This document shows positions 1,290-56,825 of a stretch of DNA of 64,000 bases, piece by piece. Source of the stretch: Ignavibacteriota bacterium (lineage in GTDB: Bacteria; Bacteroidota; Ignavibacteria; Palsa-1295). The first letter of the stretch is position 1; each line of letters starts with the position of its first letter. Below the pieces are notes generated by a model. It was not told where the DNA came from. It made no database searches and saw only the letters and a program-made list of their open reading frames with translations. The stretch spans positions 439,586-503,585 of the forward strand of contig CAWBEI010000003.1 of NCBI GenBank assembly GCA_963787835.1. Direction: 5' to 3'. Both the position numbers and the translations under genes were made by a program.

Positions 1290-2906
1290 TCAATCGTCGT
1301 TCTCTTGCGTCTCATCATCGAAGGGAACGGGGTAATCACCGGTGAAACAGGCCGTGCAATAACCGATCTCTTTTCCGGCTTTGTCTTTATGCGGGACGCT
1401 TTCAAGCAATTTCTTTACTGTGAGATATTTCAGTGAATCGACTCCTAAGTATTTACCAATTTCTTCTTCATTCTCATGATGATTTGCGATCAGTTCTCCC
1501 TTACTGGGGAAATCCATACCATATTTGCAGGGATGAGTGATCGGAGGCGCAGTAATTCGTAAATGTATTTCACGCGGGCCGGCCTCACGAATAAGATTGA
1601 TGAGCGCTTTTGAAGTAGTGCCACGAACAATGGAATCATCGACCACGACGACCTTTTTATCTTTCAGCACCCCTTTTACCGTATTGAATTTCACTTTCAC
1701 TTTCATCTCTCGCCGGTCTTGACCCGGCTGAATGAAGGTGCGGCCCACATAGTGCGAGCGAATAAGGCCGATCTGATATTTCGTCTGGTTCCCAAGCTTT
1801 TGGTTCTGGCTGGCGTAGCCAAGAGTCGCAGTGTTCGAGGAATCCGGCACATTAATAACCGTCACTCTGCGGCCAGGGTCGTGCTCGACCGGTGATTCGA
1901 TCGCAAGCGTTTTTCCAAGCTTGCGGCGAACCCTATCAACATTCTCTTCAAAGACTTTCGAGTCGGGCCTTGCGAAGTAAATATATTCGAAAATGCAATG
2001 AGTCGGTGTAGGCGCGTGCTCGAGTATGCGAGTCGACTGCACTTCGCCGGTCTTTACGGTATGCTCATCGATGATAAGTATTTCGTTCGGTTGGACATCC
2101 CGGATATATTCGGCGCCAACAATATCGAAAGCGCACGTTTCGGAGGCAACCATATAGGCCCATGCGCCATCCGGCCGTTTGAGGCGGCCAAATGCCAGGG
2201 GCCGAATACCATGAGGATCTCGCACGGCAACCAGCGAAGTATCCGTCAGCATGGCGAGCGAATAGGCTCCGCGTGCTTGCTGAAGCGCATCACGGATCTG
2301 ATCAACCTGCGTTTCCTTGTGGGAGCGCGCGATTAAGTGCAGGATCAGTTCACTATCGGTCGAGGTTTGGAAGATCGTTCCTTGCGAGGCGAGTTCATCG
2401 CGCAAGGCATGGGTATTTGTTAGATTCCCATTGTGCGAGAGCCCGAAATTCCCCATGCGATAATGCATGATGAAGGGCTGTATGTTTTCGATCTTCCCGC
2501 TGGCACCGGTGGTGGAATAACGATTGTGAGCCAAGGCGGAATCACCAATAAGAACTTCTGACAAGATCTTGTCATCCTTGAAGACATCGAGGACAAGCCC
2601 ATTATCCTTATGGATGCGAAATTTTCGTTTCGGCCCCCTGGGCGTTTCCTCTGTGAATGCAGAAAGAATCCCTCCCGCTTCCTGGCCTCGATGCTGCAAC
2701 GCATGGAGCGCGTAATATGCAATGACGCTCGCTTCCGGATGATTATAGACCCCGACCACGCCACAATTACTTTCCGGCTTATCGATGAACCGGTTCGCAT
2801 TCCCGTGACCGGAAATGCTTAAGATAGGTAACTCAATATCCTCAGGAGCGCTGAGAGGGATGGTGGGCGAAGTGTAGTTCTGCATTTGCGTGAGGCAGAA
2901 CAGCAT
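1290..2906 (-). CDS. purF: Amidophosphoribosyltransferase
   Basis: CGVVG, LQHRGQE, HNRYST, HNGNLTN, CIFEYIYFARPDS, VDDSIVRGTT, CKYGMDF, CTACFTGDYP; start could be ATG 2885. Confidence 0.97.
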   Translation of the reverse strand: MLFCLTQMQNYTSPTIPLSAPEDIELPILSISGHGNANRFIDKPESNCGVVGVYNHPEASVIAYYALHALQHRGQEAGGILSAFTEETPRGPKRKFRIHKDNGLVLDVFKDDKILSEVLIGDSALAHNRYSTTGASGKIENIQPFIMHYRMGNFGLSHNGNLTNTHALRDELASQGTIFQTSTDSELILHLIARSHKETQVDQIRDALQQARGAYSLAMLTDTSLVAVRDPHGIRPLAFGRLKRPDGAWAYMVASETCAFDIVGAEYIRDVQPNEILIIDEHTVKTGEVQSTRILEHAPTPTHCIFEYIYFARPDSKVFEENVDRVRRKLGKTLAIESPVEHDPGRRVTVINVPDSSNTATLGYASQNQKLGNQTKYQIGLIRSHYVGRTFIQPGQDRREMKVKVKFNTVKGVLKDKKVVVVDDSIVRGTTSKALINLIREAGPREIHLRITAPPITHPCKYGMDFPSKGELIANHHENEEEIGKYLGVDSLKYLTVKKLLESVPHKDKAGKEIGYCTACFTGDYPVPFDDETQENDD

Positions 2907-2959
2907 TCTTTCAATGAGAATTTCCTTCGTGAATGAAAGATCGAAATTGGACCGGCCTG

Positions 2960-3850
2960 CTATTCTTTTCTGACGCGGTCGATCAGGTATTGATCGAACC
3001 CCGCTTCCTTCATTTTTTCATCCGAGGCTGCGGCGTGATGAATGAGATGCAGCAGTTCGGTCGTCATTCCCATGCTGCTGTATCCGCCATCGTGAAACAG
3101 GTTCTGCATGGTAACTTTTCTTGTGAGATCGCTGAGCAGGGTCACGACGTAATCCGCGCATTCCTCTGCCGTTGGGTTGCCGAGCGGTGAAAGAAGATTG
3201 GCAAATTCGTAGATCTTATCGAAATCAACGATGCCGGAGCCGGCGCGAGTGGGCGTTGGGCTTTGGCTGACGGTATTCACACGTATCTTTTTCTTACCAA
3301 GCCGCGCGCCAAAACTGCGAGTGATGGATTCCAGCAGGGCTTTCGCATCGGCCATATCGGCATACGTCGTAAAGGTGCGTTGCGCCGCGATGTAGCTGAG
3401 CGACAGAATACTCGCCCCATCGGCAAGCGCATCCATCGCGAGAGCGCCATGAATGAGCCTGTGAAGCGATAGCCCACTGACATCCAGTGTTTTCAGGAAC
3501 CAATCGTAGTTGGCTTTTTCATATTTCAATCCCTTGCGAATGTTTTGCGATATTCCGACGGAATGAACAAAAAAATCGAGCGAGCCGAGCTTCTCTTTCG
3601 CTTCCGCAAAACAGGCTTCGACTTCCTTGCTATTCGAGACATCGCATTGGATGAGCGGTGCGTCACCGAGAATCTTCGCAAGCTCCGCCGGTTTACCGAC
3701 GCGCAGAGCAACCGCTACATTACTAACAGCAAGCCTTGCTCCCTCCCGATGAGCCGCAAGTGCAATTTGCCATCCGAGGCTCGTTTCGTCTAATGGACCG
3801 AAAACGATTCCCTTTTTACCCTTCAGTAATCCGTAAGATCTTTCTGCCAT
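2960..3850 (-). CDS. fabI: Enoyl-ACP reductase
   Basis: LLKGKKGIVFG, catalytic YADMADAK (Yx6K), VTMQNLFHDGG; Bacteroidota-type FabI. Confidence 0.92.
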   Translation of the reverse strand: MAERSYGLLKGKKGIVFGPLDETSLGWQIALAAHREGARLAVSNVAVALRVGKPAELAKILGDAPLIQCDVSNSKEVEACFAEAKEKLGSLDFFVHSVGISQNIRKGLKYEKANYDWFLKTLDVSGLSLHRLIHGALAMDALADGASILSLSYIAAQRTFTTYADMADAKALLESITRSFGARLGKKKIRVNTVSQSPTPTRAGSGIVDFDKIYEFANLLSPLGNPTAEECADYVVTLLSDLTRKVTMQNLFHDGGYSSMGMTTELLHLIHHAAASDEKMKEAGFDQYLIDRVRKE

Positions 3851-36613: not shown

Positions 36614-37639
36614 TTACTCCTTGATTAATCGTTCGATCATTTCCACGCTGGAAAGACCTTCCGCTTCCGCATTGAAATTTGTGATGATGCGGTGACGGAG
36701 CACCGGCAATGCCAACGCACGCACATCTTCTATCGAGGGGGTATATCGCCCATTCAATACGGCGCGCACTTTAGCGCCCAACACCAGATATTGCGAGGCA
36801 CGAGGTCCGGCACCATAACTAACATACTTCGAGATAAAATCTGGAGTTCCCGCGCGTTTTGGGCGCGTTTTTCCAGCCAGACGAACAGCGTACGCAATGA
36901 CGTTCTCAGCAACGGGAACCGTACGAACCAAATCCTGAAACGCGCAGATCTCGTTGGCATCCATCACTTTCGTGAGACTCGCGTGATATTCGCTCGTCGT
37001 CGTGCGAACGATCTCCATCTCTTCCTGCTCGGTCGGATAATCGAGCCACAGATTGAACATAAAACGATCGAGTTGTGCCTCCGGCAGTGGGTAAGTTCCC
37101 TCTTGCTCGATGGGATTCTGCGTAGCCAACACGAAGAATGGCTCCGCAAGCGTATAGGTAATGTTGGCTGCTGTTACGCGGTGCTCCTGCATGGCTTCCA
37201 ACAGAGCGGCCTGTGTTTTTGGAGGTGTGCGATTTACTTCATCCGCAAGAATAATATTGGCGAATACCGGTCCGCGAATAAAGCGAAAATCCTTGCCACC
37301 CGTTGTAAGATTTTGCTCGAGGATCTCCGTGCCGGTAATATCCGTCGGCATAAGATCTGGGGTGAACTGAATGCGGCTGAACGTGAGGTGCAACACATCA
37401 CTGACGGTACGAATTAGGAGGGTCTTGGCAAGACCCGGCACTCCGACCAGCAAACAATGACCGCGCGCAAGCAAGGCGATCATTAACTGATCGATCACAG
37501 CTTCCTGACCGACTATAACCTTCCCTACTTCACGTTTTAATTGTTGAAATTTATGAACGAGATCGCTTGCAGCCTCGATCTCCCTTCCATTAGAAGATGG
37601 TTGCACCCGAGAAGTAAGTTCTGTCGTGGATTGAGCCAT
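36614..37639 (-). CDS. MoxR-family AAA+ ATPase
   Basis: GVPGLAKT, RIQFTPDLMP, ADEVNRTPPKTQ, ATQNPIEQEGTYPLPEAQLDRF. Confidence 0.96.
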   Translation of the reverse strand: MAQSTTELTSRVQPSSNGREIEAASDLVHKFQQLKREVGKVIVGQEAVIDQLMIALLARGHCLLVGVPGLAKTLLIRTVSDVLHLTFSRIQFTPDLMPTDITGTEILEQNLTTGGKDFRFIRGPVFANIILADEVNRTPPKTQAALLEAMQEHRVTAANITYTLAEPFFVLATQNPIEQEGTYPLPEAQLDRFMFNLWLDYPTEQEEMEIVRTTTSEYHASLTKVMDANEICAFQDLVRTVPVAENVIAYAVRLAGKTRPKRAGTPDFISKYVSYGAGPRASQYLVLGAKVRAVLNGRYTPSIEDVRALALPVLRHRIITNFNAEAEGLSSVEMIERLIKE

Positions 37640-37646
37640 TAGAATC

Positions 37647-39035
37647 CTATAGAGTGACTGGTTTTTCTATGACCGTTCCCTCATCGTTAAATACATTCAT
37701 TTCACCAAATTCACCCATGCCGGCTTCAAGCGCCTGCACGTCGCCACTTGCCGCGATGACAAGCTGACTCGGATGGAGATATTCCCTGGCGATCCTATAG
37801 AGATCGACGGATGTGATCGCCGAAAGTTTCTCACGATAGGTGTCCCAGTAATCGTGGTCCAGCCCATAGAGCACAAGTGTTGCCACGCGGCCTGCGACCT
37901 GCTGAGGCGTTTCGATCTGAAGCGGAAAATTTCCGATCATGTAATTCTTCACCATCTGGAGTTCCTCTTCGGGAACTTGTTCCACGGTCAAGCGCGTGAT
38001 CTCGCTCACAATTTCCTCGACCGCTCGGGTGGTGACCTCCGTACGCACTTCAGTGGAAACAACGAACGGCCCCGGCTCGATTCGTGCATCGAACGCACTC
38101 CTTGCTCCGTAGGTATATCCATGCACTTCCCGAAGATTGAGATTGATGCGGGAATTAAAATACCCTCCCAACAGTACGTTCAAAACCGAGACTGGAATAT
38201 AATCAGGACTGTTCCGAGGAATACCGACATGGCCCACCCGAAGCGCAGACTGTACTGCCCCCTCGCGATTAATAAGACCAACCTGACTCGAAGCCCTTAA
38301 ACTGACATCCCCGAAACTCACCTTTGGATGCGTGCCTCCAGACCAGGTTGACAAGTTCGCCTCCATCAATGAGCGCAAATGCTCTGAACGTACATCACCG
38401 GCAGCCACCATGAAGGCATTCGAAGGGGTAATGTATTTTTTGGCAAAACCGGTTATATCGGCACGGCTCATCTCGGTGATAGATCGCTCGGTTCCCATGG
38501 ATTGCTGACCATAGGGATGTCCGGGAAAAACCATATTGGAGAATACCATATCGGCCAGGAACCCTGCGTCGGCTTTTGCCTGACGTAAACTTGCAAGCCG
38601 CTGCAACCGCATTCGCTCGATCTCCTCTTCAGGGTACGTCGAAAACTGGATGACATCTGCAAGAAGATCAATAGCCACATCGAGATATTTGCTCAGCACG
38701 CTGACATTGATCGTCATGGTATCCCAGCCAGCCGATGCACTCAGCGAACCGCCGACAAAATCAATTTCTTCCGCGATCTGAGTAGCATTCCTTCGGGCAG
38801 TTCCCTTCGTCAAAAGATCGGCAACCATGCACACAAGCCCTTCGCGATTCCGAGGATCTAATGCGGAACCCGCGCGAAGAAAAAGCGACAAGGATACGAT
38901 CGGCTGTTCGTGATTTGGTACGGTCCAAACATCGATCCCATTAGAAATGGGTATGCGCTCGAACGAAGGAAAAAAGACCTTGGGTGTTGGCGCTGCTTTG
39001 GGTGGGATCGAGCGATCCAATATGTAATCGTTCAT
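37647..39035 (-). CDS. M16 peptidase family, non-catalytic subunit
   Basis: M16 fold motifs (SRINLNLREVHGYTYG), but HxxEH is replaced by CMVAD; ATGA overlap at 39032-39035. Confidence 0.88.
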   Translation of the reverse strand: MNDYILDRSIPPKAAPTPKVFFPSFERIPISNGIDVWTVPNHEQPIVSLSLFLRAGSALDPRNREGLVCMVADLLTKGTARRNATQIAEEIDFVGGSLSASAGWDTMTINVSVLSKYLDVAIDLLADVIQFSTYPEEEIERMRLQRLASLRQAKADAGFLADMVFSNMVFPGHPYGQQSMGTERSITEMSRADITGFAKKYITPSNAFMVAAGDVRSEHLRSLMEANLSTWSGGTHPKVSFGDVSLRASSQVGLINREGAVQSALRVGHVGIPRNSPDYIPVSVLNVLLGGYFNSRINLNLREVHGYTYGARSAFDARIEPGPFVVSTEVRTEVTTRAVEEIVSEITRLTVEQVPEEELQMVKNYMIGNFPLQIETPQQVAGRVATLVLYGLDHDYWDTYREKLSAITSVDLYRIAREYLHPSQLVIAASGDVQALEAGMGEFGEMNVFNDEGTVIEKPVTL

Positions 39036-40372
39036 GGATTCATTTGTTCTATTGGCACATTCGGGTTCATGGAATAGACGATCGTGCAACGATTGGCTAC
39101 GGCAAGATAGCGCTCCGCTGCGGCGCGTATCTCATCTATGGTGATGGAGTTATACTCTTCCAAAAGATGGTTCACTCGTCCAGCATTATTAAACATAAGT
39201 GCAGCATGGGCGAGCTGATCGGCCTTTCCGTGCATCGTGACGCGGCTTGCTACGAACATCGCCTCTGTTTTATTCTTAGCCTTTTGCAATTCCTCCGCGC
39301 TGACGCCATGCTCCACCAGATCGCGGACGATCGCTTCTAAAGCTGTTTCTAATTCATCCGTTCCTCCGTCGGGTGAGCTATGCACCGCTAAGATATAGAG
39401 CAGCCCAGGCATCTCGCGCCCATCGACGTAAGCGGCTGCTTCTGAAGCAATTTGCTGATCATACACCAGCAATCGATACAAGCGTGAACTTTCACCACTC
39501 GATATGATCGTGGTTAAGAGATCAAGCGCCAGATATTCCCGCGATCCTTCGGCCGGAATACGATACGCATAAAAAACAGCTGGCAGTGGAACGGGTTCCG
39601 AATCAACGAGCTCCCGACGTTCACCAATATTCGTTGACTCATCAAACTCCGGTTGATGGATCGCGTGCGCTTCAGGATTATTGATCTCTCCAAAGTAATG
39701 CTTAATTCGTGACAGCGCGATCGAGGGATCGAAATCTCCCGCTAACACGAGCACCGCATTGGAAGGAAGATAAAATGTTTCGAAAAAGTTACGAACATCA
39801 TCCACGGTTGCGGCATCGATCGTTTCCATATCACCAATCACGGCCCATCGGTACGGAAAGGATTGATACGCTAAACGGTTCATCCGAATGGTCATCGAGC
39901 CATAAGGAGTATTGTCATAACGCTCCCTCTTTTCTTCTTTGACGACCTGCTTTTGGGTCGCTAATCCAACATCCGATACCGCAAACTCCAGCAGCCGGTC
40001 ACTTTCAAGCCATAGGGCCAGATCTAACTGATTCGAAGGCAGAACCTCGTAATAGTTGGTTTTATCCTCGGTGGTATAGGCGTTATCATTCCCGCCCGCC
40101 TGCGTGATATAGACGTCAAACGCACCGCGAGGAATGTTCTTCGATCCGTCGAACAATAGATGCTCGAAAAGATGTGCGAAACCGCGACGGCTGCTATCCT
40201 CATTTTTGCTACCGACGTGATACGCAATATTAAGGCAAACAACCGCTGACGTATGATCCTCATGAAGAATCACGCGCAAACCATTGGTTAAGCGATGTTC
40301 CTCGAAATCGATAAACCCAGTGGGCACGGTTCCTTGAGCGTTCGTAATGGTATCGAGTGTGGTTTCTCTCAT
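39032..40372 (-). CDS. M16 zinc peptidase, catalytic type
   Basis: YHVGSKNE, HLFEH, WLESDR, VVKEEKR; ATGA overlap gives start 40372. Confidence 0.93.
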   Translation of the reverse strand: MRETTLDTITNAQGTVPTGFIDFEEHRLTNGLRVILHEDHTSAVVCLNIAYHVGSKNEDSSRRGFAHLFEHLLFDGSKNIPRGAFDVYITQAGGNDNAYTTEDKTNYYEVLPSNQLDLALWLESDRLLEFAVSDVGLATQKQVVKEEKRERYDNTPYGSMTIRMNRLAYQSFPYRWAVIGDMETIDAATVDDVRNFFETFYLPSNAVLVLAGDFDPSIALSRIKHYFGEINNPEAHAIHQPEFDESTNIGERRELVDSEPVPLPAVFYAYRIPAEGSREYLALDLLTTIISSGESSRLYRLLVYDQQIASEAAAYVDGREMPGLLYILAVHSSPDGGTDELETALEAIVRDLVEHGVSAEELQKAKNKTEAMFVASRVTMHGKADQLAHAALMFNNAGRVNHLLEEYNSITIDEIRAAAERYLAVANRCTIVYSMNPNVPIEQMNP

Positions 40373-41661
40373 TTGGGAATAACAGTACCAACGACACAAT
40401 GGGAACGGTTCAGATACTCCTGTGCAGCGCGTTGAATATCCTCGGCCGTGATCGAACGATACATATCAAGTTCACGAAGACAGCACGCGGTATCCGCATT
40501 GAAGCACCAACCTTGCTGTAAGCGGTCTGCGCGGCGACCCAGTTCGACCATCGAACTCACGACTTCCATTTCCGCGCGATTCTTAACTTTTTCAAGTTCC
40601 GATCCGTCGATCGGCGCTTGCTTCAGCTTCTCGATCTCACCCCAGATCGCTTCTTCGACTTCTTCCACCGAGCTATTCGTCTGCACCTTTGCATCGAAGT
40701 AGAATACGCCTGTTTTCTCCGATCCGTTATTATTTGCATCCGCGCTACGGGCGATCTTTCGGCGATAAACCAATTCCTGATACAGCCTGCTACTACGCCC
40801 ACCCGCTAACGCCATGGATAGCAGATCAAGAACATATTCATCATGGCTGAGCCCTGGGGCGGACTGAAACGCGATATACACCGCTGGAAGCTTCACAGAA
40901 TCTTCGAGTGTGAACCGGACCTGTGAAGGTGTTGGAGTAATGATCTGCTCTGGGCGATTGACTGGAGCACCTTTGGGAATTGAACCGAAATAACGCTCGA
41001 TCAACCGGCGTACTTCCGATTCCTTAAAATCTCCAACGACCGCCAAGGAGCAATTATTCGGTTTGTAATATTCTGCGTGGAATGCTTGAGCATCCCCGAC
41101 AGTAGCTTGATCTAGATGATCCATCGAGCCAATAGTCGTCCAATGGTAACCACTGGTCGGCCAGAGCCTGCGAGCAATATTTTCCCAGACCGTGCCATAT
41201 GGTCGGTTATCGTAACGCTGACGGCGCTCTTCCTTGACCACTGCCCTTTGATTCTCAAAATTTTCGTGCGTTACATTGAGCGTCAGAAGCCGGTCACTCT
41301 CGAGCCACAGTGCGGTCTCTAATTCCGAGGAGGGAAGTGTTTCGAAATAATTCGTTCGATCGACATTCGTCGTTGCATTAAGCAACCCACCGGCACTCAG
41401 AACATATTTGAAATGCTCGGCTTTCCCGACATGCTTCGATCCCTGAAACATCATGTGCTCGAAGAGATGGGCAAAACCGGTGCGTGAAGGCGGATCGTCC
41501 TTCGAACCAACATGGTACCACAGGTTCGCCACGACGAGTTGAACACGGTGGCTTGGCGCCAATATCACATGGAGACCATTCTCCAGATCATATTCTGTAA
41601 AAGAGATCTTAGGGCCGCCAGTGGCATTAGCACGCAGGGTGGCATCTATTATTCTATCCAT
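40369..41661 (-). CDS. M16 zinc peptidase, catalytic type
   Basis: YHVGSKDD, HLFEHMMF, WLESDR, VVKEERR. Confidence 0.93.
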   Translation of the reverse strand: MDRIIDATLRANATGGPKISFTEYDLENGLHVILAPSHRVQLVVANLWYHVGSKDDPPSRTGFAHLFEHMMFQGSKHVGKAEHFKYVLSAGGLLNATTNVDRTNYFETLPSSELETALWLESDRLLTLNVTHENFENQRAVVKEERRQRYDNRPYGTVWENIARRLWPTSGYHWTTIGSMDHLDQATVGDAQAFHAEYYKPNNCSLAVVGDFKESEVRRLIERYFGSIPKGAPVNRPEQIITPTPSQVRFTLEDSVKLPAVYIAFQSAPGLSHDEYVLDLLSMALAGGRSSRLYQELVYRRKIARSADANNNGSEKTGVFYFDAKVQTNSSVEEVEEAIWGEIEKLKQAPIDGSELEKVKNRAEMEVVSSMVELGRRADRLQQGWCFNADTACCLRELDMYRSITAEDIQRAAQEYLNRSHCVVGTVIPK

Positions 41662-41676
41662 CTCCGAGTGGCAATT

Positions 41677-43008
41677 TTAATAATAGTTTGAGAGATCGTG
41701 AACATCCACATAGATCGTCGAGCGCGCATGGGCGAGCCATCGGGCGAGATCCTGACTTTGCTTCCATTGCAGCGCAGCCGCTTCGAGTTCGCGGTAATCC
41801 TCGTCAAGCGAGATTTTATGCGCCGGTACTTTTCGAATAAGTTTTACAATTTGAAATCCCGTTTTATTCGCGGCGTACGCAATGTGAATAGGTTCTGAAA
41901 CATCTCCTACGTTCAGGGAATCCACAACGGCACGTTGCTCCGGCGCAAGATCTTCGAGGCGAATACGCCCGAGCGTTCCACCGAAGGAACGGGTTTCGGC
42001 ATCGTCGGAATGATTTTCTGCCAGTTTAGCAAAATCCGCCCCGTGTTCGGCGCTGTCGCGTAAAACAAGCAGGCTATCCCGGATGGCTCCTTCATCGGCG
42101 GAATTGATCGTAGGCTTTATCAATATTTGGGCAACATGCACCTCTTCGCCTCGCCGCTCGATGAGTTTGATGATATGGAACCCTTGTACCGTTTCCACGA
42201 CATCCGAAATTTCCCCTGGCTTCAGTTTAAACGCCGCTTCTTCGAACGCGGGCAGGAACGTTCCCCGCGGATAGGAAGCGCCAAGATCCCCGCCACTCGA
42301 CGCATTAGGGTCCTGGGAGTACCGTTTTGCCATCACAGCAAAATCGGCCCCATGGCGGAGGGAATCGAGAATAGATTTGGCCAGATCGAGCGAGTGTTCC
42401 TTTTGATTCGGAAGCGGTTTAACGAGTTCCACGATCGTGGCAAGTTCGACTTCGTCACCAACAACAGGAAGCGAATCCTTATAGATCTGAAAGAATTTCT
42501 CGACATCCTGCCGAGAGATACTGGTTGACGGAGGAAGCACTTTATACCGTTCCTGTTGAACGATAAGATTCTCGCGCGTACGGGACCGAAGATCGGGGGA
42601 AGCTTTTAGCTCAGCGATCGTATGTCCAAATTGGCGTTCTACTTCCGACTCGCTGCCAAATCGCGTTACATAGCCCTTGATGAGGTCATTGATCTGATTA
42701 TCGACTTCCTGCTCCGAGACCGTCACAGAATCTTCGTCTGCTTTTGCAAGCAGCAGTTTTTGATCGATCTCGCTTTCTAATACTTGCTTCCTGAGCGCCA
42801 TCATAGTATCCGGATTTATATCCGTAGCGCCACGCTGCATCAGATAAAGCTGAGCCTGTGCATCGATCGAGGATTTATAGATCGGGTGCTTCCCCACGAC
42901 CGCAACAACAGCATCGAGCGTGGAGCCGTCTTTTATGGTTGCAGGCTGGCCTACGGCAACCTGAGCCATAAAAAGGATGAGGGCAAAAAAAGATAATGTA
43001 TGTTTCAT
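41677..43008 (-). CDS. SurA-like periplasmic chaperone/PPIase
   Basis: Signal peptide, LDAVVAVVG SurA N-domain, two parvulin domains (YSQD..GGDLG, HSDD..GGTLG). Confidence 0.9.
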   Translation of the reverse strand: MKHTLSFFALILFMAQVAVGQPATIKDGSTLDAVVAVVGKHPIYKSSIDAQAQLYLMQRGATDINPDTMMALRKQVLESEIDQKLLLAKADEDSVTVSEQEVDNQINDLIKGYVTRFGSESEVERQFGHTIAELKASPDLRSRTRENLIVQQERYKVLPPSTSISRQDVEKFFQIYKDSLPVVGDEVELATIVELVKPLPNQKEHSLDLAKSILDSLRHGADFAVMAKRYSQDPNASSGGDLGASYPRGTFLPAFEEAAFKLKPGEISDVVETVQGFHIIKLIERRGEEVHVAQILIKPTINSADEGAIRDSLLVLRDSAEHGADFAKLAENHSDDAETRSFGGTLGRIRLEDLAPEQRAVVDSLNVGDVSEPIHIAYAANKTGFQIVKLIRKVPAHKISLDEDYRELEAAALQWKQSQDLARWLAHARSTIYVDVHDLSNYY

Positions 43009-43059
43009 ATTAAGACTCTGATTTACCCGTATTGCGCCACAGAGGCGATCAGAGTGTGC

Positions 43060-45195
43060 TTAATGCTTAATTAAATTCCCCTGCTCACCGGAATGCTGCT
43101 TTGTCCAGGCGGCGGTAATGACCGGCTCGTTGATCTGACGGTCATATTTGGCTCGTAGTTCTTCGACCCATTGGGTGCGCAATTCCTGGGCACGATCATC
43201 CTGATACTGGCTTGCAACCTCCTGGCGTGCCTCGGCAAAGGTTTTTTGATGCGGCGGATCGCGGCGATTCAGCAGAACAATAGAATATCCACCCTGAAAG
43301 GCAAATGGCTCCTTGATCTCTCCCACCATAAAGCTGAAGCATTTTTGCGCCAACTGGTTCTCATCTTTGGTAACAAGCCCCCAATGTCCAGCCTTTTGCT
43401 TGAAACCGGGGCGATCCGTATATTGCTTGGCTAAGGTATCGAAGTTCTCACCGGCAATAGCACGTTTGTAGATCACTTTAGCAAGGGAATCCTTACCGGC
43501 GTTAAAGTAGATCTCCGAAATATCCACACGCTCCGGCCAGAGGAAATTGGCTTTGTGTGCTTCATAATACTTTACTTCATTTGCGCTATCCGGCACCACC
43601 TTCGACCACACGCGTTTATTCTCAAGATCGAACAAGATAATTCCGTTCTTGTAATCCTCCATGATCTTTTCGAACTCCGGATATTTGGAAGGAATCACAC
43701 GGGCCTCGATCTGGAGCGCAGCGTTCTCGGCGTTGGTCGTTATAATATCGCGTAACGAGTTGCGAGCAAGCGGTGCACCGGCCTTTGCGGTAAGGGAATC
43801 GATGAGCGTTCCGACGGTCCAGCTAACATCCCCCATGGTAAAAATGGGCTTGGAACGATCTTTCAGCTTCGAGGCCCAGTTCGAATCGGCGGAAGTCCGT
43901 GAGGAATCGATATGTGCCATGATATAATCAAGCGCAGTGGAATCGAGATGATAATGGTGAGTAGCTTCTATCCCCGAGATGAACTTCGCTTTGTCTTCAT
44001 CGAAATAATACTTCTTATAGAATTGCTCCAAATGATCCTTGGATTCATCAAACGTTCTGCCTCTCACCCCATTGACGCGCTTGATGATATGGTATCCAAA
44101 GCTCGTGCGAATGATACCCGATATCTCTCCATCCTTCAACGCATAGGCGGCTCGATCAAAAGAATATTCCGTACGGCGATCTTCATGGTTAATGGTGTCC
44201 ATATCGCCGCCGCGCACTGCGGTAGGCTTATCGTTGGAAGATTCCCTTGCAACTTCCTCGAAATTCGCCCCATTATGAATGGCCGTAAGAAGACTGTCTG
44301 CGGTGTGGTAAAAGGGCATCGTATCGATCCCCCCTATCTTTGGCATCGAAACAAGAATATGCTTAACATGCACACCACCCGTGTGAGGTTCTTTCGCGTA
44401 GAGCATAATGACATGGTAACCATACCGAGTTTTGACCGGGGTCTTCGTGTATTCACCCGGCTGGAGTGTGAACAGCGCATCCTCGAACGGGCGGACGGTC
44501 ATCCCAGCCATAAAAAAGCCGAGATCGCCACCCCCAAGGGAACTTGCATGATCGTCCGAACCACCCCAATTTACCATCAACGAGGTGTCGAGCTTTTTGC
44601 CATGAAGCACGGCAAGATCATGCTGATAGATCAGTGCGCGGTCACCGGGCTGCATACATACAAAGGCAAACGGGTAACCCTCATTCAACATTTGTATGAC
44701 CTGCATGGCACGTTTATAGGCTGCAAGGGTGTCTGCCGGATTTTTCCAATTCTTCACGCTCGCAAGAAAATGCGCGGCATGAACATCCCACTGCCTCCGT
44801 TCATACAAGGCTCGAACGGCGGGGTCAGTTATCTCTTTATCTAATATAAACGGGCCAGAAAGCATCCGGCGATATCCGGTGATCTCTTTTTGAACAGAGG
44901 GATCCTGATCGAGACCCTCTTCTTTTGCTTCCTGCAGCTTTAAATGGTAATCGGCATACACGCTGAGAAAATCCTTGAGTGAGTCCAGGGTGGTGGAATA
45001 CGGCGCCTTGCCATTCATGCGCTGAAACGCATCCTCGAATTCCGCAAGCGATACCTCGCCACCTTTCCACTTGATGAGCCACGGGCTGTTATCAGGCGAC
45101 GATGGGGTTTGCGCGTGAACAGGTGTATAACCGGTTCCGGCAAGAATAATGAAGCAAATTCCGAACAATAGCTTTCGGAGATGTGTACTCTGCAT
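43060..45195 (-). CDS. Multi-parvulin peptidylprolyl isomerase
   Basis: Likely start ATG 45195 with signal peptide; GGDLGFF..PVKTRYGYHVI, HILV..GGDM..GYHII, and a third parvulin-like domain. Confidence 0.9.
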   Translation of the reverse strand: MQSTHLRKLLFGICFIILAGTGYTPVHAQTPSSPDNSPWLIKWKGGEVSLAEFEDAFQRMNGKAPYSTTLDSLKDFLSVYADYHLKLQEAKEEGLDQDPSVQKEITGYRRMLSGPFILDKEITDPAVRALYERRQWDVHAAHFLASVKNWKNPADTLAAYKRAMQVIQMLNEGYPFAFVCMQPGDRALIYQHDLAVLHGKKLDTSLMVNWGGSDDHASSLGGGDLGFFMAGMTVRPFEDALFTLQPGEYTKTPVKTRYGYHVIMLYAKEPHTGGVHVKHILVSMPKIGGIDTMPFYHTADSLLTAIHNGANFEEVARESSNDKPTAVRGGDMDTINHEDRRTEYSFDRAAYALKDGEISGIIRTSFGYHIIKRVNGVRGRTFDESKDHLEQFYKKYYFDEDKAKFISGIEATHHYHLDSTALDYIMAHIDSSRTSADSNWASKLKDRSKPIFTMGDVSWTVGTLIDSLTAKAGAPLARNSLRDIITTNAENAALQIEARVIPSKYPEFEKIMEDYKNGIILFDLENKRVWSKVVPDSANEVKYYEAHKANFLWPERVDISEIYFNAGKDSLAKVIYKRAIAGENFDTLAKQYTDRPGFKQKAGHWGLVTKDENQLAQKCFSFMVGEIKEPFAFQGGYSIVLLNRRDPPHQKTFAEARQEVASQYQDDRAQELRTQWVEELRAKYDRQINEPVITAAWTKQHSGEQGNLIKH

Positions 45196-45369
45196 GTATT
45201 CGAATGAGTGCGAAAAGTGAGCGATATAAAGCCGAAATTGACCTAAAAAACGAGAATCTGTTCCGAATCGGGCGATTCCTTCTGCACGACGGAAAACAGT
45301 TTGGAAACAACGCCACAACCAGAGATTTTGGTTCGCTCAATCACCCTATAGCAAAGGCTGGGAAGCGGA

Positions 45370-46398
45370 TTACAGCTTGCGCTTCATCGCTCGCAATACC
45401 GCTACTTTAACGTCTGCACTGGTGAGACCGAAGAACTTCATGAGTTCATCGGGTTTGCCACTGCCGCCGAAGGTATCTTTTACACCAACGAATTCGACAG
45501 GCGTGGGAATTTCCTGGGCAAGTACTTCGGCTACTGCTCCGCCGAGACCTGCGGTGATCTGATGCTCTTCCGCAGTAACGATCGCGCCGCATTCGGAAGC
45601 GGCTGTCACGATGGCAGCACGGTCGAGCGGTTTAATGGTGGACATATTGATGACGCGAACGCTCACTCCTTCTGCTTCAAGTTCATACGCCGCAACAAGG
45701 GATTCCCAAACCATCGGCCCGCAGGCGATGATGGCCACATCACTGCCTTCTTTGAAAATTTGTGCTTTGCCAATTTCGAACGGAGTATCTTCCCGCGTGA
45801 AACTCGGAATATCTACTCTGCCGAAGCGAATGTAGGTTGGGCCGTAATATTCGCCAACAGCAACTGTCGCTTTCTTGGCTTCGAGGAAATCGCAGGGAAC
45901 AACGAGCGTCATGTTCGGCAATACTCGAATGATCGCTATCTCTTCGAGCGCCTGATGCGTAGCGCCATCCTCGCCAACGGAGATTCCGGCATGGCCTCCG
46001 CCGATCTTCACATTGGCGTCGTTATAGGCGCAAGAGATGCGTAGCATATCCGTATTGCGGCACGAAGCAAATGCGCCATAGGTAGCAAAAAATGGAATAT
46101 TTCCGGAAAGCGCGAGGCCCGTTGCAACCAGCGTGGCAGCAGCTTCGGTAATACCCATCGAGAAGAAGCGCTCAGGGAATTTATCTTTGAAATAGGAGGT
46201 CATGACGGAACCGGTAATATCGCCACCTAAGACGACGATGTTATCCCATCGCTCACCAAGCATCACCAAGCCCTCGCCAAACCCAAAGCGGGTGGCTTTC
46301 TTGCCTTGCATTTCGAATTTTTGTAGCACTCCGTATGTCGATGATAATATTGGACTGATTGGACTAAGTGGTCCGCTTAAAACTTCTGTTTTTGTCAT
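45370..46398 (-). CDS. Transketolase, C-terminal subunit
   Basis: ATRFGFG, FSMGITEA, GEDGATHQALEE, TAEEHQ..GLGGAVAE. Confidence 0.93.
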   Translation of the reverse strand: MTKTEVLSGPLSPISPILSSTYGVLQKFEMQGKKATRFGFGEGLVMLGERWDNIVVLGGDITGSVMTSYFKDKFPERFFSMGITEAAATLVATGLALSGNIPFFATYGAFASCRNTDMLRISCAYNDANVKIGGGHAGISVGEDGATHQALEEIAIIRVLPNMTLVVPCDFLEAKKATVAVGEYYGPTYIRFGRVDIPSFTREDTPFEIGKAQIFKEGSDVAIIACGPMVWESLVAAYELEAEGVSVRVINMSTIKPLDRAAIVTAASECGAIVTAEEHQITAGLGGAVAEVLAQEIPTPVEFVGVKDTFGGSGKPDELMKFFGLTSADVKVAVLRAMKRKL

Positions 46399-46442
46399 TA
46401 TTTCCCTATCCCAAAAATCCCATTCATCCCATAAATCCTGGT

Positions 46443-47393
46443 TTAGACCAATTCTTTCAATGCTTCTTCACCCTGCTCAGCTGTCGGCGGTTTGCCATGC
46501 CAGCGGTAATCGTCTTCCATAAAGCTTACGCCGCGACCCATGAAGGTTTGGGCTACAATGCAGGTAGGCCGGCCAGTTATCGTTCGCGCTTCCCTGAATG
46601 CCGCACGCAGTTCACCGATATTATTCCCGTTGCATTCGATCACATGGAAATTGAACGCCCGGAATTTATCGCCAACAGGATTTAACTTCATCACATCTTC
46701 GGTTCGTCCATCGATCTGACAATTGTTTCGATCGACGACCATCGTGAAATTATCGAGTTCCCAATGCGCTGCGATAAGCGCTGCTTCCCAAATTTCGCCT
46801 TCGGATAATTCGCCATCACCGGTGAGCGCAAACACTCTTCGGCCATTTTTATCGACTCGTTTATCGGCTAATGCCATTCCAACGGCGATACCCAACCCTT
46901 GCCCCAGTGAACCGGTCGAGCTTTCGATACCCGGCAATCCCATATCTCGTCCGGGATGGCCTTGCAGCCGAGAGTTAAAATTGCGAAGCGTCAGTAATTC
47001 CGATTTAGGGAAAAATCCGGCGTTGGCAAGAGTTGAATACAATACGGGACACATGTGGCCAGCGGAAAGAATAAAACGATCCCGACCTTCCCACCAGGGA
47101 TTCTTCGCGTCGTAGCGCATAACACCTGCGAAATACAGTGTTGCAAAAATATCCGCAGACCCGAGCGGCCCACCGGAATGCCCGCTCTTCGCCTCTACCA
47201 GTTCATGAATGATATCCCTGCGGATAGTTTGAGCAATTTCATGCAATTTCTCATCGCTATGATCTGCCGAGTTCCCGTATGGCACGAACGAGTCATAGCC
47301 ATATTTCGCGATGAGTTCGGGATTCGGAACAGGCCTCGTTGGGCCATGAAAGCCGGTGGTAAGAGGATAGATCTGATGCGTTAGCCGTGCCAT
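46443..47393 (-). CDS. Transketolase, N-terminal subunit
   Basis: SGHSGG, DRFILSAGH, LQGHP, STGSLGQG, GDGE ThDP motif, WHGK. Confidence 0.95.
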   Translation of the reverse strand: MARLTHQIYPLTTGFHGPTRPVPNPELIAKYGYDSFVPYGNSADHSDEKLHEIAQTIRRDIIHELVEAKSGHSGGPLGSADIFATLYFAGVMRYDAKNPWWEGRDRFILSAGHMCPVLYSTLANAGFFPKSELLTLRNFNSRLQGHPGRDMGLPGIESSTGSLGQGLGIAVGMALADKRVDKNGRRVFALTGDGELSEGEIWEAALIAAHWELDNFTMVVDRNNCQIDGRTEDVMKLNPVGDKFRAFNFHVIECNGNNIGELRAAFREARTITGRPTCIVAQTFMGRGVSFMEDDYRWHGKPPTAEQGEEALKELV

Positions 47394-47505: not shown

Positions 47506-47536
47506 AAAAAACCCACTCGGTTTCGAATGGGTTTTT
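47506..47536 (-). terminator. Intrinsic terminator after rpsU (possibly bidirectional)
   Basis: AAAAAACCCA-CTCG-GTTT-CGAA-TGGGTTTTT. Confidence 0.8.
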
Positions 47537-47559: not shown

Positions 47560-47754
47560 TTATACCTGTTCTGCCTGCACGTGCATCTGCCGGCGTGCCG
47601 CACGCTGACGCAGCATCTTGTTCTTGACCGAGGGCTTTTCGAAATACGTCCTGCGGCGATATTCTTTTAAGATGCCCGAACGCTCGTACTTCTTCTTGAA
47701 GCGGCGAAGCGCCCGATCGATCGGTTCGTGTTCCTGTACGATGATTCCTACCAA
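47560..47754 (-). CDS. rpsU: 30S ribosomal protein S21
   Basis: IDRALRRFKKK..GILKEYRRRTYFEKPS; TTG start preceded by AGGAG. Confidence 0.96.
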   Translation of the reverse strand: MVGIIVQEHEPIDRALRRFKKKYERSGILKEYRRRTYFEKPSVKNKMLRQRAARRQMHVQAEQV

Positions 47755-47795: not shown

Positions 47796-48266
47796 TTATT
47801 GCGGCTGAAAGTTCTCCAACAGTTTCCGCTCACCGGACTTCTCGAAATGTACCAACACGGCGTTCCTTCCACTGGCCGTGACTTCCTTACCCATCACCGT
47901 GCCGACGTCATCCCAATCCTTGTGGAAGATCGCTTCGCCGATCGCATAAATGCGGCTGGGCGAGTACGGCGTGCATTCCGAAGCAGAAAGCATCGTATGC
48001 GCCTTGGGCTTCTCGCTCATCAGCGCCGTAAGGTTGACGAGCATCGTGTTGTGGCACTTGGTGCAGCGAACCCACAAATTCTCCGGCACAGGCTCTTCGG
48101 CAGCGCGGTCGATCGGCTGAGGATCTTCACCGGCCAAACGGGTGCGCGCCTCGCCAACGATCTCCTTTCGGGCCGTACGAGTGCATTCCGAGCAGAGCAT
48201 CAGCCCAGTGATGTACTTCGAGCGCCGTCGGGTGCGGGGTGTCTTTGTTGCGGTTTTCGTCGCCAA
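47796..48266 (-). CDS. Hypothetical protein: Zn ribbon plus C-terminal Tudor/KOW-like domain
   Basis: CSEC...CTKC; YAIGEAIFHKDWDDVGTV...VLVHFEKSGERKLLEN; TTG start. Confidence 0.8.
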   Translation of the reverse strand: MATKTATKTPRTRRRSKYITGLMLCSECTRTARKEIVGEARTRLAGEDPQPIDRAAEEPVPENLWVRCTKCHNTMLVNLTALMSEKPKAHTMLSASECTPYSPSRIYAIGEAIFHKDWDDVGTVMGKEVTASGRNAVLVHFEKSGERKLLENFQPQ

Positions 48267-48543: not shown

Positions 48544-48569
48544 AAGAGGCGGGGGAAACCCCGCCTCTT
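48544..48569 (-). terminator. Hairpin terminator after rpoC
   Basis: AAGAGGCGGGG-GAAA-CCCCGCCTCTT; short U tail. Confidence 0.75.
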
Positions 48570-55900: not shown

Positions 55901-56825
55901 GAATAACGGCGCCGCCGGTATCTTCGAGATCCATAAAGCGTACCTTACGAATACCGCCGGTACGAAGGCGCTCGATGTGCTCTTCGAGGAATGTCGAATC
56001 TTTCGAAAGGAAAATTTCGCCCGTGTTCATGTCGATCACGTCGGCGGCGATGAGCTTGCCAACATAAGCGGTAAGATCGGCAGTCTTGACATCGACATCC
56101 TGAATAAGACCGAAAAGATGGAGAATATCCTCATCGCTGGACCATCCGAGTGCGCGGAGCAGCATCGTGACCGGGAATTTCTTCTTACGGTCGATGTAGG
56201 CCCAAAGCACATTATTAATATCGGTGGTGAACTCGACCCAGCTTCCGCGGAACGGGATGACACGACCGGAAAAGATCGTCGTACCGTTTGGATGCAAGCT
56301 TTCCGCAAAGAATACACCCGGCGAGCGGTGCAACTGCGAAACAACAACGCGCTCGGCGCCATTGATAATGAAGGTACCGCGCTCGGTCATCATGGGAAGG
56401 TTACCGAGAAACACTTCCTGCTCGACGGTCTCTACAAAATCCTCGCTCTTTTCTTCGGGATTTTTTGAGGCAAGGCGAAGTCGAGTCTTCAGCGGAACGC
56501 TGAACGTCAGCCCGCGCTCCTGGCACTCCTGCACGGTATAGCGTGGCTTTTCAAGGCGATAATCGAGATATTCGAGCACGAACGTCTCGCGGCTGTCGAT
56601 GATCGGGAAATTTAACTGAAACACGGATTCGAGTCCGGTCACGCGGCGATCGGCGATCGGCACACCATCCTGAAGGAATTCCTGAAACGACTGAAGCTGC
56701 ACGTCCAACAGATCGGGCAGATCATAATCGCGTGGAATTTTGGAGAACGAGATACGCCCCGTGTCTATTACGTGAGCGTCCCCGAGTAGTGGAATTTTAT
56801 TGGTTGCTTTCGCTGAACGTGCCAT
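52992..56825 (-). CDS. rpoB: RNA polymerase beta subunit
   Basis: SQLHRSPG, DIDHLGNRR, SQFMDQTN, GDKMAGRHGNKG, GQRFGEMEVWALEAYG. Confidence 0.99.
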   Translation of the reverse strand: MARSAKATNKIPLLGDAHVIDTGRISFSKIPRDYDLPDLLDVQLQSFQEFLQDGVPIADRRVTGLESVFQLNFPIIDSRETFVLEYLDYRLEKPRYTVQECQERGLTFSVPLKTRLRLASKNPEEKSEDFVETVEQEVFLGNLPMMTERGTFIINGAERVVVSQLHRSPGVFFAESLHPNGTTIFSGRVIPFRGSWVEFTTDINNVLWAYIDRKKKFPVTMLLRALGWSSDEDILHLFGLIQDVDVKTADLTAYVGKLIAADVIDMNTGEIFLSKDSTFLEEHIERLRTGGIRKVRFMDLEDTGGAVILNTIQKDTSRSTDDAFEAIYRVMRSSEAPDMEAARGLLEKLFFNQKRYDLGLVGRIRLNQTLHEGTPGIPNEITTLTKEDIIEILKYIIRLQLGKASVDDIDHLGNRRVRTVGEQLAQQFNIGLARMARTIRERMSIHDEKVGPADLVNARTVTSVVNTFFGTNQLSQFMDQTNPLAEMTHKRRMSALGPGGLTRERAGFEVRDVHYTHYGRLCPIETPEGPNIGLISSLAVYARINEFGFLETPYRIVKDGKVTTDITYLSADDEEDKVIAQANQALDKDGHFVDDRISARQFGDFIVIAPDKVQYMDVAPSQIVSAAAALVPFLEHDDANRALMGSNMQRQAVPLLRPEAPLVATGFEGKIARDSRALLLAERDGLVESVDADRIVMVYDDEGSRDEILSSFDDRRHREYKLTKFFRTNQDTCISQRPSVREGQRVKKGTVLADSSSTELGELALGRNVLVAFMPWRGYNFEDAIVISERVVSEDIYTSIHIEEFELHVRDTKRGEEELTREIPNVSEEATKDLDETGVIRTGAEVKEGDIIIGKITPKGETDPTPEEKLLRAIFGDKAGDVKDASMKAPPGIKGVVVETKLFSRKGIKKEGEEKREEKRRIDAIDKMYKDQFDDTNRKLAEKLLKVLDGEVSVGVRDLDGATVIRSGVSFKHDTFYSRLDELEKLYVGADWLEDRRKMNQVRRIYEGYWGKREDIDADVRRERSKVGLGDELQPGIMQMAKVYVAKKRKLSVGDKMAGRHGNKGVVAKIVPQQDMPFLADGTPVDIVLNPLGVPSRMNIGQLYETALGFAAHKLGVRFETPIFDGAHWNDVKSYLTEADLNVDARTELYDGRSGEKFSQPVTVGEIYMMKLSHLVDDKIHARSIGPYSLITQQPLGGKAQFGGQRFGEMEVWALEAYGAAHTLQEILTVKSDDVPGRSKVYEAIVKGENMPEPSVPESFSVLVRELQGLGIEIRID

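Follow-up and report, generated by a model that had tools for sequence, protein, structure and literature searches.

Downstream of rpoBC and immediately in front of the gene for ribosomal protein bS21 (rpsU), the genome of an Ignavibacteriota bacterium contains a small gene, here referred to as Q, whose product combines a pair of CxxC motifs with a Tudor-like domain. An earlier note on this DNA had proposed that Q is a stand-alone transcription factor or adaptor that binds RNA polymerase (RNAP). Does the protein dock on RNAP, or does its location point to a different partner? The gene was analyzed within a stretch of 64,000 nucleotides (the window), together with its homologs and their genomic surroundings.

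Gene Q is a genuine reading frame

Q occupies positions 47796–48266 of the minus strand, starts with TTG preceded by a Shine-Dalgarno-like sequence, and encodes 156 amino acids. The end of rpoC (48615) lies 348 bp upstream, and rpsU (47560–47754, minus strand; PF01165, E = 7e-21) begins 41 bp downstream. The features previously read from the sequence, that is, the basic N-terminal tail, the cysteine pairs C25-x2-C28 and C68-x2-C71, and the quoted C-terminal sequence, were all present in the translation, and the existence of homologs in databases, in related genomes, and in genomes of the phylum makes Q more than a chance reading frame. Its record in the Atlas begins at M23; K17 is conserved in 112 of 114 homologs, which favors a start upstream of that residue.

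No sigma-70-like promoter for Q was found on the coding strand. TAnnTTTG, a promoter element of Bacteroidota, occurred in 7 of 55 upstream regions (shuffled sequences: mean 2.9, at most 9); when the element was relaxed, the number rose to 40 of the 55 (mean 19, at most 27). Two terminator-like hairpins, both pattern matches only and matched in number by the 2.1 expected from shuffles, were detected on the minus strand, one 3′ of rpoC, between rpoBC and Q (48546–48562), the other just 3′ of rpsU (47507–47536). The genes that follow rpsU on the minus strand (36614–47393; a split transketolase, two PpiC/SurA-type isomerases, three M16 peptidases, and a MoxR-type AAA ATPase) are ordinary and not conserved beside Q.

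No Pfam or NCBIfam family matched the Q protein above cut-off, NCBIfam yielding nothing meaningful, and its look-alikes in the Atlas are unnamed clusters. In the clusters inspected, the members are recorded as “hypothetical” or “uncharacterized”, bar two stray automatic labels, in agreement with the earlier reading of Q as stand-alone and uncharacterized. A description of the family was not found in open-licence PMC and bioRxiv, nor was a paper there mentioning CT1920 or CT1919 (presumably the locus tags of the Chlorobaculum tepidum neighborhood) or Q8KB69. The main-text portions available of PMC1887533 and PMC9318685 do not identify a Q homolog, which could be listed in their supplements under a Plut number.

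Q is widespread among green sulfur bacteria and their relatives

Among 99 candidates, 36 database proteins matched Q at E ≤ 0.001, the nearest named relatives being those of Candidatus Kapabacteria and Ignavibacteriota. Q was present once per genome in 34 of 41 related genomes, and a profile (A2) detected it in 130 of 301 genomes of the phylum, never more than once in any of them. All 63 genomes of the Chlorobiaceae-like family f28 contained Q, and proteins encoded at f28 loci were identical to Chlorobaculum and Chlorobium records; the family member of C. tepidum is P0125 (UniProt Q8KB69). The same profile detected no Q in f36 (0/49), f29 (0/22), f24 (0/16), f15 (0/16), and f26 (0/5). We take f24, f29, and f32 to be Bacteroidia because of the bS21 they encode and the XerC-like gene downstream. 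Thirty of the Q-negative genomes were also searched with a second profile of greater distance, which did not reveal full-length Q either; apart from two weak strays, it matched UvrD-type tails within long frames.

When 1.84 billion representatives were searched with a profile, 233 proteins were retrieved at E ≤ 0.001, and 60 of the best 150 were examined; among the distant full-length forms, the four cysteines were present in 36 of 36 aligned sequences. No fused long form was found at E ≤ 0.001 among 7,990 candidates of 371–2,000 amino acids, which is weak evidence, and no phage copy was confirmed among 229 pattern matches in viral_contigs or found in 50,697 phage records. As kin are not independent of each other, all these counts describe the range of Q, not the number of events.

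The C-terminal barrel is homologous to the C-terminal domain found in PcrA/UvrD

The AlphaFold2 (AF2) model of Q, built from 114 sequences (pLDDT 78, pTM 0.45), consists of a ribbon (residues 18–78), a low-confidence linker, and a confident terminal β-barrel (pLDDT ∼94 over residues 101–150); the only listed helix of at least four residues spans 79–84. The Tudor/SH3-like barrel (residues 101–153; 47808–47966, minus strand) is supported by sequence profile, AF2, Foldseek, and the VIA alignment. Searches of the PDB with the single Q sequence retrieved nothing, and those with profile A2 nothing under E 0.08. When the profile was built from the 36 distant homologs (A5), the C-terminal domain (CTD) of Escherichia coli UvrD ranked first among 177,635 PDB sequences (7EGS_B, E = 4.1e-5; 6YI2, E = 4.9e-5). 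Comparison with 20 UvrD CTDs by hhalign gave probabilities of 96.6% with A5 and 85.9% with A3, and the UvrD CTD of the window's genome, used as a single sequence, gave 72.6%. The window protein itself scores 19 and 21.3 bits against PF21196, below the cut-off of 23.9, the homolog G027 scores 27.2 bits, and of 16 members, 13 gave a match with E ≤ 0.1. The likeness to the PcrA/UvrD Tudor-like domain that had been noticed by eye is thus borne out as homology, by sequence profile as well as by predicted fold.

Structural comparison alone was less discriminating. Foldseek gave its highest probabilities to 5DMA (0.99), 7EGS_B (0.98), 9DQS (0.97), and 9DCI (0.97), with no match at E ≤ 0.001. In VIA, the barrel aligned to 7EGS_B with Z 5.7 (rmsd 2.7, 47 residues) and to 5DMA with Z 5.2, but equally to CarD (4L5G; Z 5.2, rmsd 1.8, 47 residues) and to a designed SH3 domain (Z 6.1); because these scores are tied and middling, it is the sequence profiles that separate the UvrD CTD from CarD/Mfd. 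The CarD alignment, and the fact that the sole PF02559 match of this genome lies in a frame of 1,141 amino acids (Mfd), no stand-alone CarD being found in it, could suggest that Q acts like CarD, binding the β1 protrusion and stabilizing open promoter complexes in lineages devoid of CarD. This is very improbable: the Mfd RNAP-interacting domain (RID) of the genome, used as a single sequence, gave 0.24% with hhalign, that is, no detectable homology; the model lacks a C-terminal helical DNA-binding domain; and PcrA-type domains do not use β1 but dock on the β insert SI1 (PMC8318588). The parallel to CarD and Mfd drawn in the earlier note was, therefore, misleading.

The pattern on which the original recognition rested held for the C-terminal homology but not for its turn, expected to read [FW]-G-x-G. 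Q instead has W-D-D-V-G and a one-residue insertion; the turn glycine is invariant in 20 of 20 UvrD CTDs, whereas Q homologs have aspartate (83 of 114) or asparagine (27 of 114). The W-D-D-x-G turn may change specificity.

A PF21196 match was present in 45 of 45 genomes, 35 with and 10 without Q; it was above cut-off in 44, nearly always in frames of 727–852 amino acids, and in the genome of the window it belongs to a separate UvrD (frame of 789 amino acids). That Q might be a split-off tail of UvrD was rejected since UvrD retains its own domain; Q is a separate, paralogous module. One genome of the same genus has, besides UvrD and Q, a second PF21196 match above cut-off in a frame of 270 amino acids (G002:C4:770546-770674).

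The same Tudor subtype also occurs outside of Q. In P0261, P0273, P0281, and P0287, it is fused to tandem helix-turn-helix (HTH) domains, and P0273 from Candidatus Wallbacteria passes the cut-off for GcrA (27.5 versus 26.9); these proteins are candidate transcription regulators. Tudor-only proteins of 74–102 amino acids with a basic tail were found in 11 metagenome loci (L238–L248); their position is conserved, a large gene (∼750–790 amino acids) coming next, and there is no rpsU nearby.

A conserved four-cysteine ribbon precedes the barrel

The protein's N-terminal part is basic (median net charge +4) and contains a C4 β-ribbon (residues 17–78; 48033–48218, minus strand), defined by conserved cysteines and by AF2 strands at residues 18–24, 31–39, 63–68, and 74–78. 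C25, C28, C68, and C71 are present in 112, 112, 114, and 112 of 114 homologs, respectively, and presumably bind zinc. In L028, L166, and P0177, three or all of these cysteines are replaced, the ribbon pattern and the Tudor domain being retained. Folded alone and without an alignment, the ribbon was predicted with low confidence (pLDDT 55). Its profile matches were not significant (bL31, E = 0.016; Rpb9, 0.043; L44e, 0.047; Elf1, 0.12; 1QYP, 0.16), with Tim15 tying; a ribbon-only profile (A8) gave E = 0.053 at best, and its matches in Pfam were generic.

The long loop between the cysteine pairs (residues 40–62) varies in length and sequence. In cleavage factors of the TFS/TFIIS type, the tip of the hairpin bears two conserved acidic residues; no such pair is conserved in the loop of Q, and a TFS-like function was rejected on this ground. 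In some homologs (P0023, P0025, P0026, P0030, P0031, and P0033 of alignment A1; L018–L020 and L031–L033), the loop contains I-D-P-x-T-G-E, a hairpin-like motif of the helicase-interaction type that the window protein lacks; self-inhibition or chance could account for it.

Q is linked to rpsU

To survey the surroundings of Q, 168 loci (L001–L168) were reduced to 126 non-redundant ones by the last 70 residues of the protein. In 122 of them, rpsU is the next gene on the same strand, the exceptions being L011, L073, L075, and L121, and the gap between both genes has a median of 38 nt (range 12–626), with 99 of 115 measured gaps not exceeding 100 nt (seven loci were skipped as the anchor motif failed). 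The genes upstream of Q vary widely. In particular, rpoB or rpoC was present in the flank of only two of the 126 loci, both from the same genus (many flanks comprising 1.5 kb), and a conserved linkage of Q to rpoBC was rejected. Thus, of the two neighbors to which significance had been assigned, rpsU at 41 bp is a conserved partner, whereas the position directly downstream of rpoBC is a local arrangement of the window and close kin. The strongest contextual signal being a ribosomal gene and not rpoBC counts against a role at RNAP.

Six distant metagenome loci, five of which stem from one assembly, extend this picture. The order Q-rpsU-sigma was found in L233, L235, and L236, and L234 has Q-rpsU at the end of the contig. 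L232 and L237 have Q-sigma-priA, with no rpsU between Q and the sigma gene in L232; in L237, a broken copy of Q with in-frame stops (2735–3092) precedes the sigma gene, either a pseudogene or an assembly error. The best NCBIfam matches of these sigma factors are RpoD models, below their cut-offs.

In several genomes of f15, a gene whose product we take to be universal-stress-protein-like directly precedes rpsU; related genomes have that gene, Q, and rpsU in this order. As the upstream gene adjoins rpsU where Q is absent, a clean loss of Q is suggested, and f15 keeps a similar bS21 although it is without Q.

Q and bS21 are probably coexpressed. For the homologous locus L157, two studies (X3 and X4) yielded RNA-library contigs that cover Q and bridge its boundary to rpsU, which is only a hint because such contigs can neither show a single transcript nor exclude DNA. 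The ribosome-binding site of rpsU reads GGAGGTGA in most loci, GGGGGTGA in the f28 loci, and GGATCTCC or similar in L053, L119, L125, L126, L128, L137, and L148, and these divergent sites may go along with altered 16S tails. Strong ribosome-binding sites of rpsU in Chlorobia are described in PMC9976891.

From its neighborhood, Q might be a lineage-specific ribosome-associated protein, that is, a small-subunit protein or assembly factor made together with bS21, with the ribbon binding rRNA and the barrel binding rRNA or a ribosomal protein. The tight linkage to rpsU, the basic N-terminal part, and the weak matches to bL31 and L44e would agree with this role, and so would the presence, in Bacillus subtilis uL24 (RplX), of the hairpin motif recognized by PcrA (PMC8318588); PMC9976891 states that no Chlorobia ribosome structure was known. 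It is nevertheless rather unlikely, as Q retains the protein-binding face of UvrD-type domains (see below), the same Tudor domain occurs fused to HTH domains or alone, away from rpsU, L232 has Q before the sigma gene with no rpsU in between, and f15, devoid of Q, retains a similar bS21 with the upstream neighbor shifted up.

Residues that bind RNAP in PcrA are retained in Q

In PcrA, each of the exchanges H681A, W684A, K712A, and L714A severely reduced the amount of RNAP pulled down (PMC5397179). When residues 106–153 of Q were placed onto residues 672–718 of PcrA in the VIA register, the counterparts were H115, W118, R147, and L149. Among 114 homologs, the first is always histidine, the second tryptophan (95), leucine (13), or phenylalanine (6), the third always lysine or arginine, and the fourth always leucine; in the 36 distant homologs, the corresponding numbers are 36 for histidine, 36 for tryptophan, phenylalanine, or leucine, 30 for lysine or arginine, and 35 for leucine.

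The target of the PcrA CTD on RNAP is a TGE hairpin in β SI1, distinct from the β1 site of Mfd (PMC8318588). RpoB of the window contains the corresponding helicase-interaction motif in SI1 (residues 264–272, TGE at 268–270; 56010–56036, minus strand), matching eight of nine pattern positions, which is the putative docking site of Q. Of 30 relatives, 29 share the hairpin, whether they have Q or not; as it is also present in nine of nine genomes lacking Q, it does not track the gene.

A complex predicted for residues 92–156 of Q and 10–480 of RpoB scored 0.42, which is in the weak band, compared with 0.02 for the best of three controls; runs agreed in at least 91% of the contacts and the pLDDT of the partners was at least 83, the result being a score only, without an interface. 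The benchmark of the method comprised 157 solved pairs, of which 116 passed, and 215 mismatched ones, of which 2 passed, counts that are approximate for the alignments used here, and scores up to 0.60, the range into which Q and RpoB fall, comprised 18 of the 157 solved pairs and both passing mismatches. As 7EGS is a solved complex of the same kind, the score may also come from the memory of the model.

The hairpin is not confined to RpoB. It is also present in UvrB, and the PcrA CTD binds UvrB, YxaL, and YwhK via the same motif (PMC8318588); 7EGT is a complex of the UvrD CTD with UvrB, and five reading frames of the genome analyzed here match the motif core. Rather than regulating transcription, Q could serve DNA repair or the control of replication-transcription conflicts, acting on TGE-hairpin proteins as a decoy or adaptor that mainly titrates UvrD partners or binds a hairpin protein other than RNAP, and the priA gene after the sigma gene in distant loci would be in line with this. 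We consider such a role unlikely: UvrB of this genome lacks the TGE, no repair gene recurs beside Q in the neighbor clusters inspected by eye, and an invariant C4 ribbon exceeds the needs of a simple decoy.

Proposed role of Q

On balance, we lean toward a housekeeping role for Q, with likely docking on the SI1 hairpin of the β subunit. In favor of this reading are the homology to the UvrD CTD, the retained binding residues, the TGE in RpoB but not in UvrB of this genome, the weak complex score, the sigma gene at distant loci, and the fusion of the Tudor subtype to HTH domains. According to this proposal, Q would be made together with bS21, and its barrel would dock on the TGE β-hairpin of the RpoB lobe, the site used by the CTD of UvrD/PcrA; the basic zinc ribbon, on its flexible linker, could then touch DNA, RNA, or a further protein in the vicinity of the lobe, thereby tuning transcription. 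As the site is shared, Q would likely limit the recruitment of UvrD. In B. subtilis, the CTD of PcrA, when free, wins over the full-length protein in the competition for RNAP (PMC8318588).

A more far-reaching version is possible but doubtful. Green sulfur bacteria, Ignavibacteria, Kapabacteria, and lineages further away would then share Q as an unrecognized general transcription factor, encoded in an ancestral Q-rpsU-rpoD unit and representing the first ligand of the SI1 hairpin that stands alone; it would gate the access of UvrD to transcribing polymerase, its ribbon would act on the transcription complex, and the Tudor subtype would be a reusable RNAP hook that was also fused to HTH domains.

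According to PMC8318588, no protein was reported to interact with the SI1 insert before the contact with PcrA was described. If Q has the same hook, SI1 gains a second ligand and the cell a way to regulate UvrD recruitment, and the lineages carrying Q would have a new housekeeping transcription factor. The transcription machinery of these lineages has been little studied. C. tepidum is genetically tractable, and as it encodes P0125, the family is directly testable.

Comparison with known systems

With the TFS/Rpb9/Elf1-type proteins, Q shares a C4 β-ribbon with four conserved cysteines, but its widely varying loop sets it apart from TFS/TFIIS. CarD/CdnL and the Mfd RID (PF02559) are, like the barrel of Q, small Tudor-like folds docking on RNAP. 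CarD/CdnL has a C-terminal helical DNA-binding domain; Q has none, its domain order is reversed, and it does not match PF02559. PcrA-type domains, moreover, use an RNAP site different from that of CarD and the Mfd RID.

The closest relative is the PcrA/UvrD CTD (PF21196; 5DMA, 6YI2, 7EGS, and 7EGT), with which Q has in common the homologous barrel, counterparts of H681, W684, F705, K712, and L714, and the presence of the RpoB hairpin. Unlike the helicases, Q is devoid of an SF1 core and has the N-terminal ribbon instead; its barrel differs from theirs by an extension with an invariant Y101, the W-D-D-x-G turn with its insertion, and the invariant K127 and G133, and it coexists with a normal UvrD domain in the genome. 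What is new in Q is the architecture and the family, built on a known RNAP hook, with a function that is putative. DUF3553/DinX (PF12073) likewise has a PcrA-CTD-like Tudor domain on a protein that is not a helicase, and it is a look-alike of Q in the Atlas at 0.78, a score that, being below 0.9, is a lead only. Q does not match PF12073 at E ≤ 0.1, the family is not among the 22 listed for 16 members, and the partner domain is another one. DinX is nonetheless the precedent for Q, that is, a PcrA-like Tudor domain placed on a different protein, for which binding to RNAP was proposed from residue conservation only (PMC6511836).
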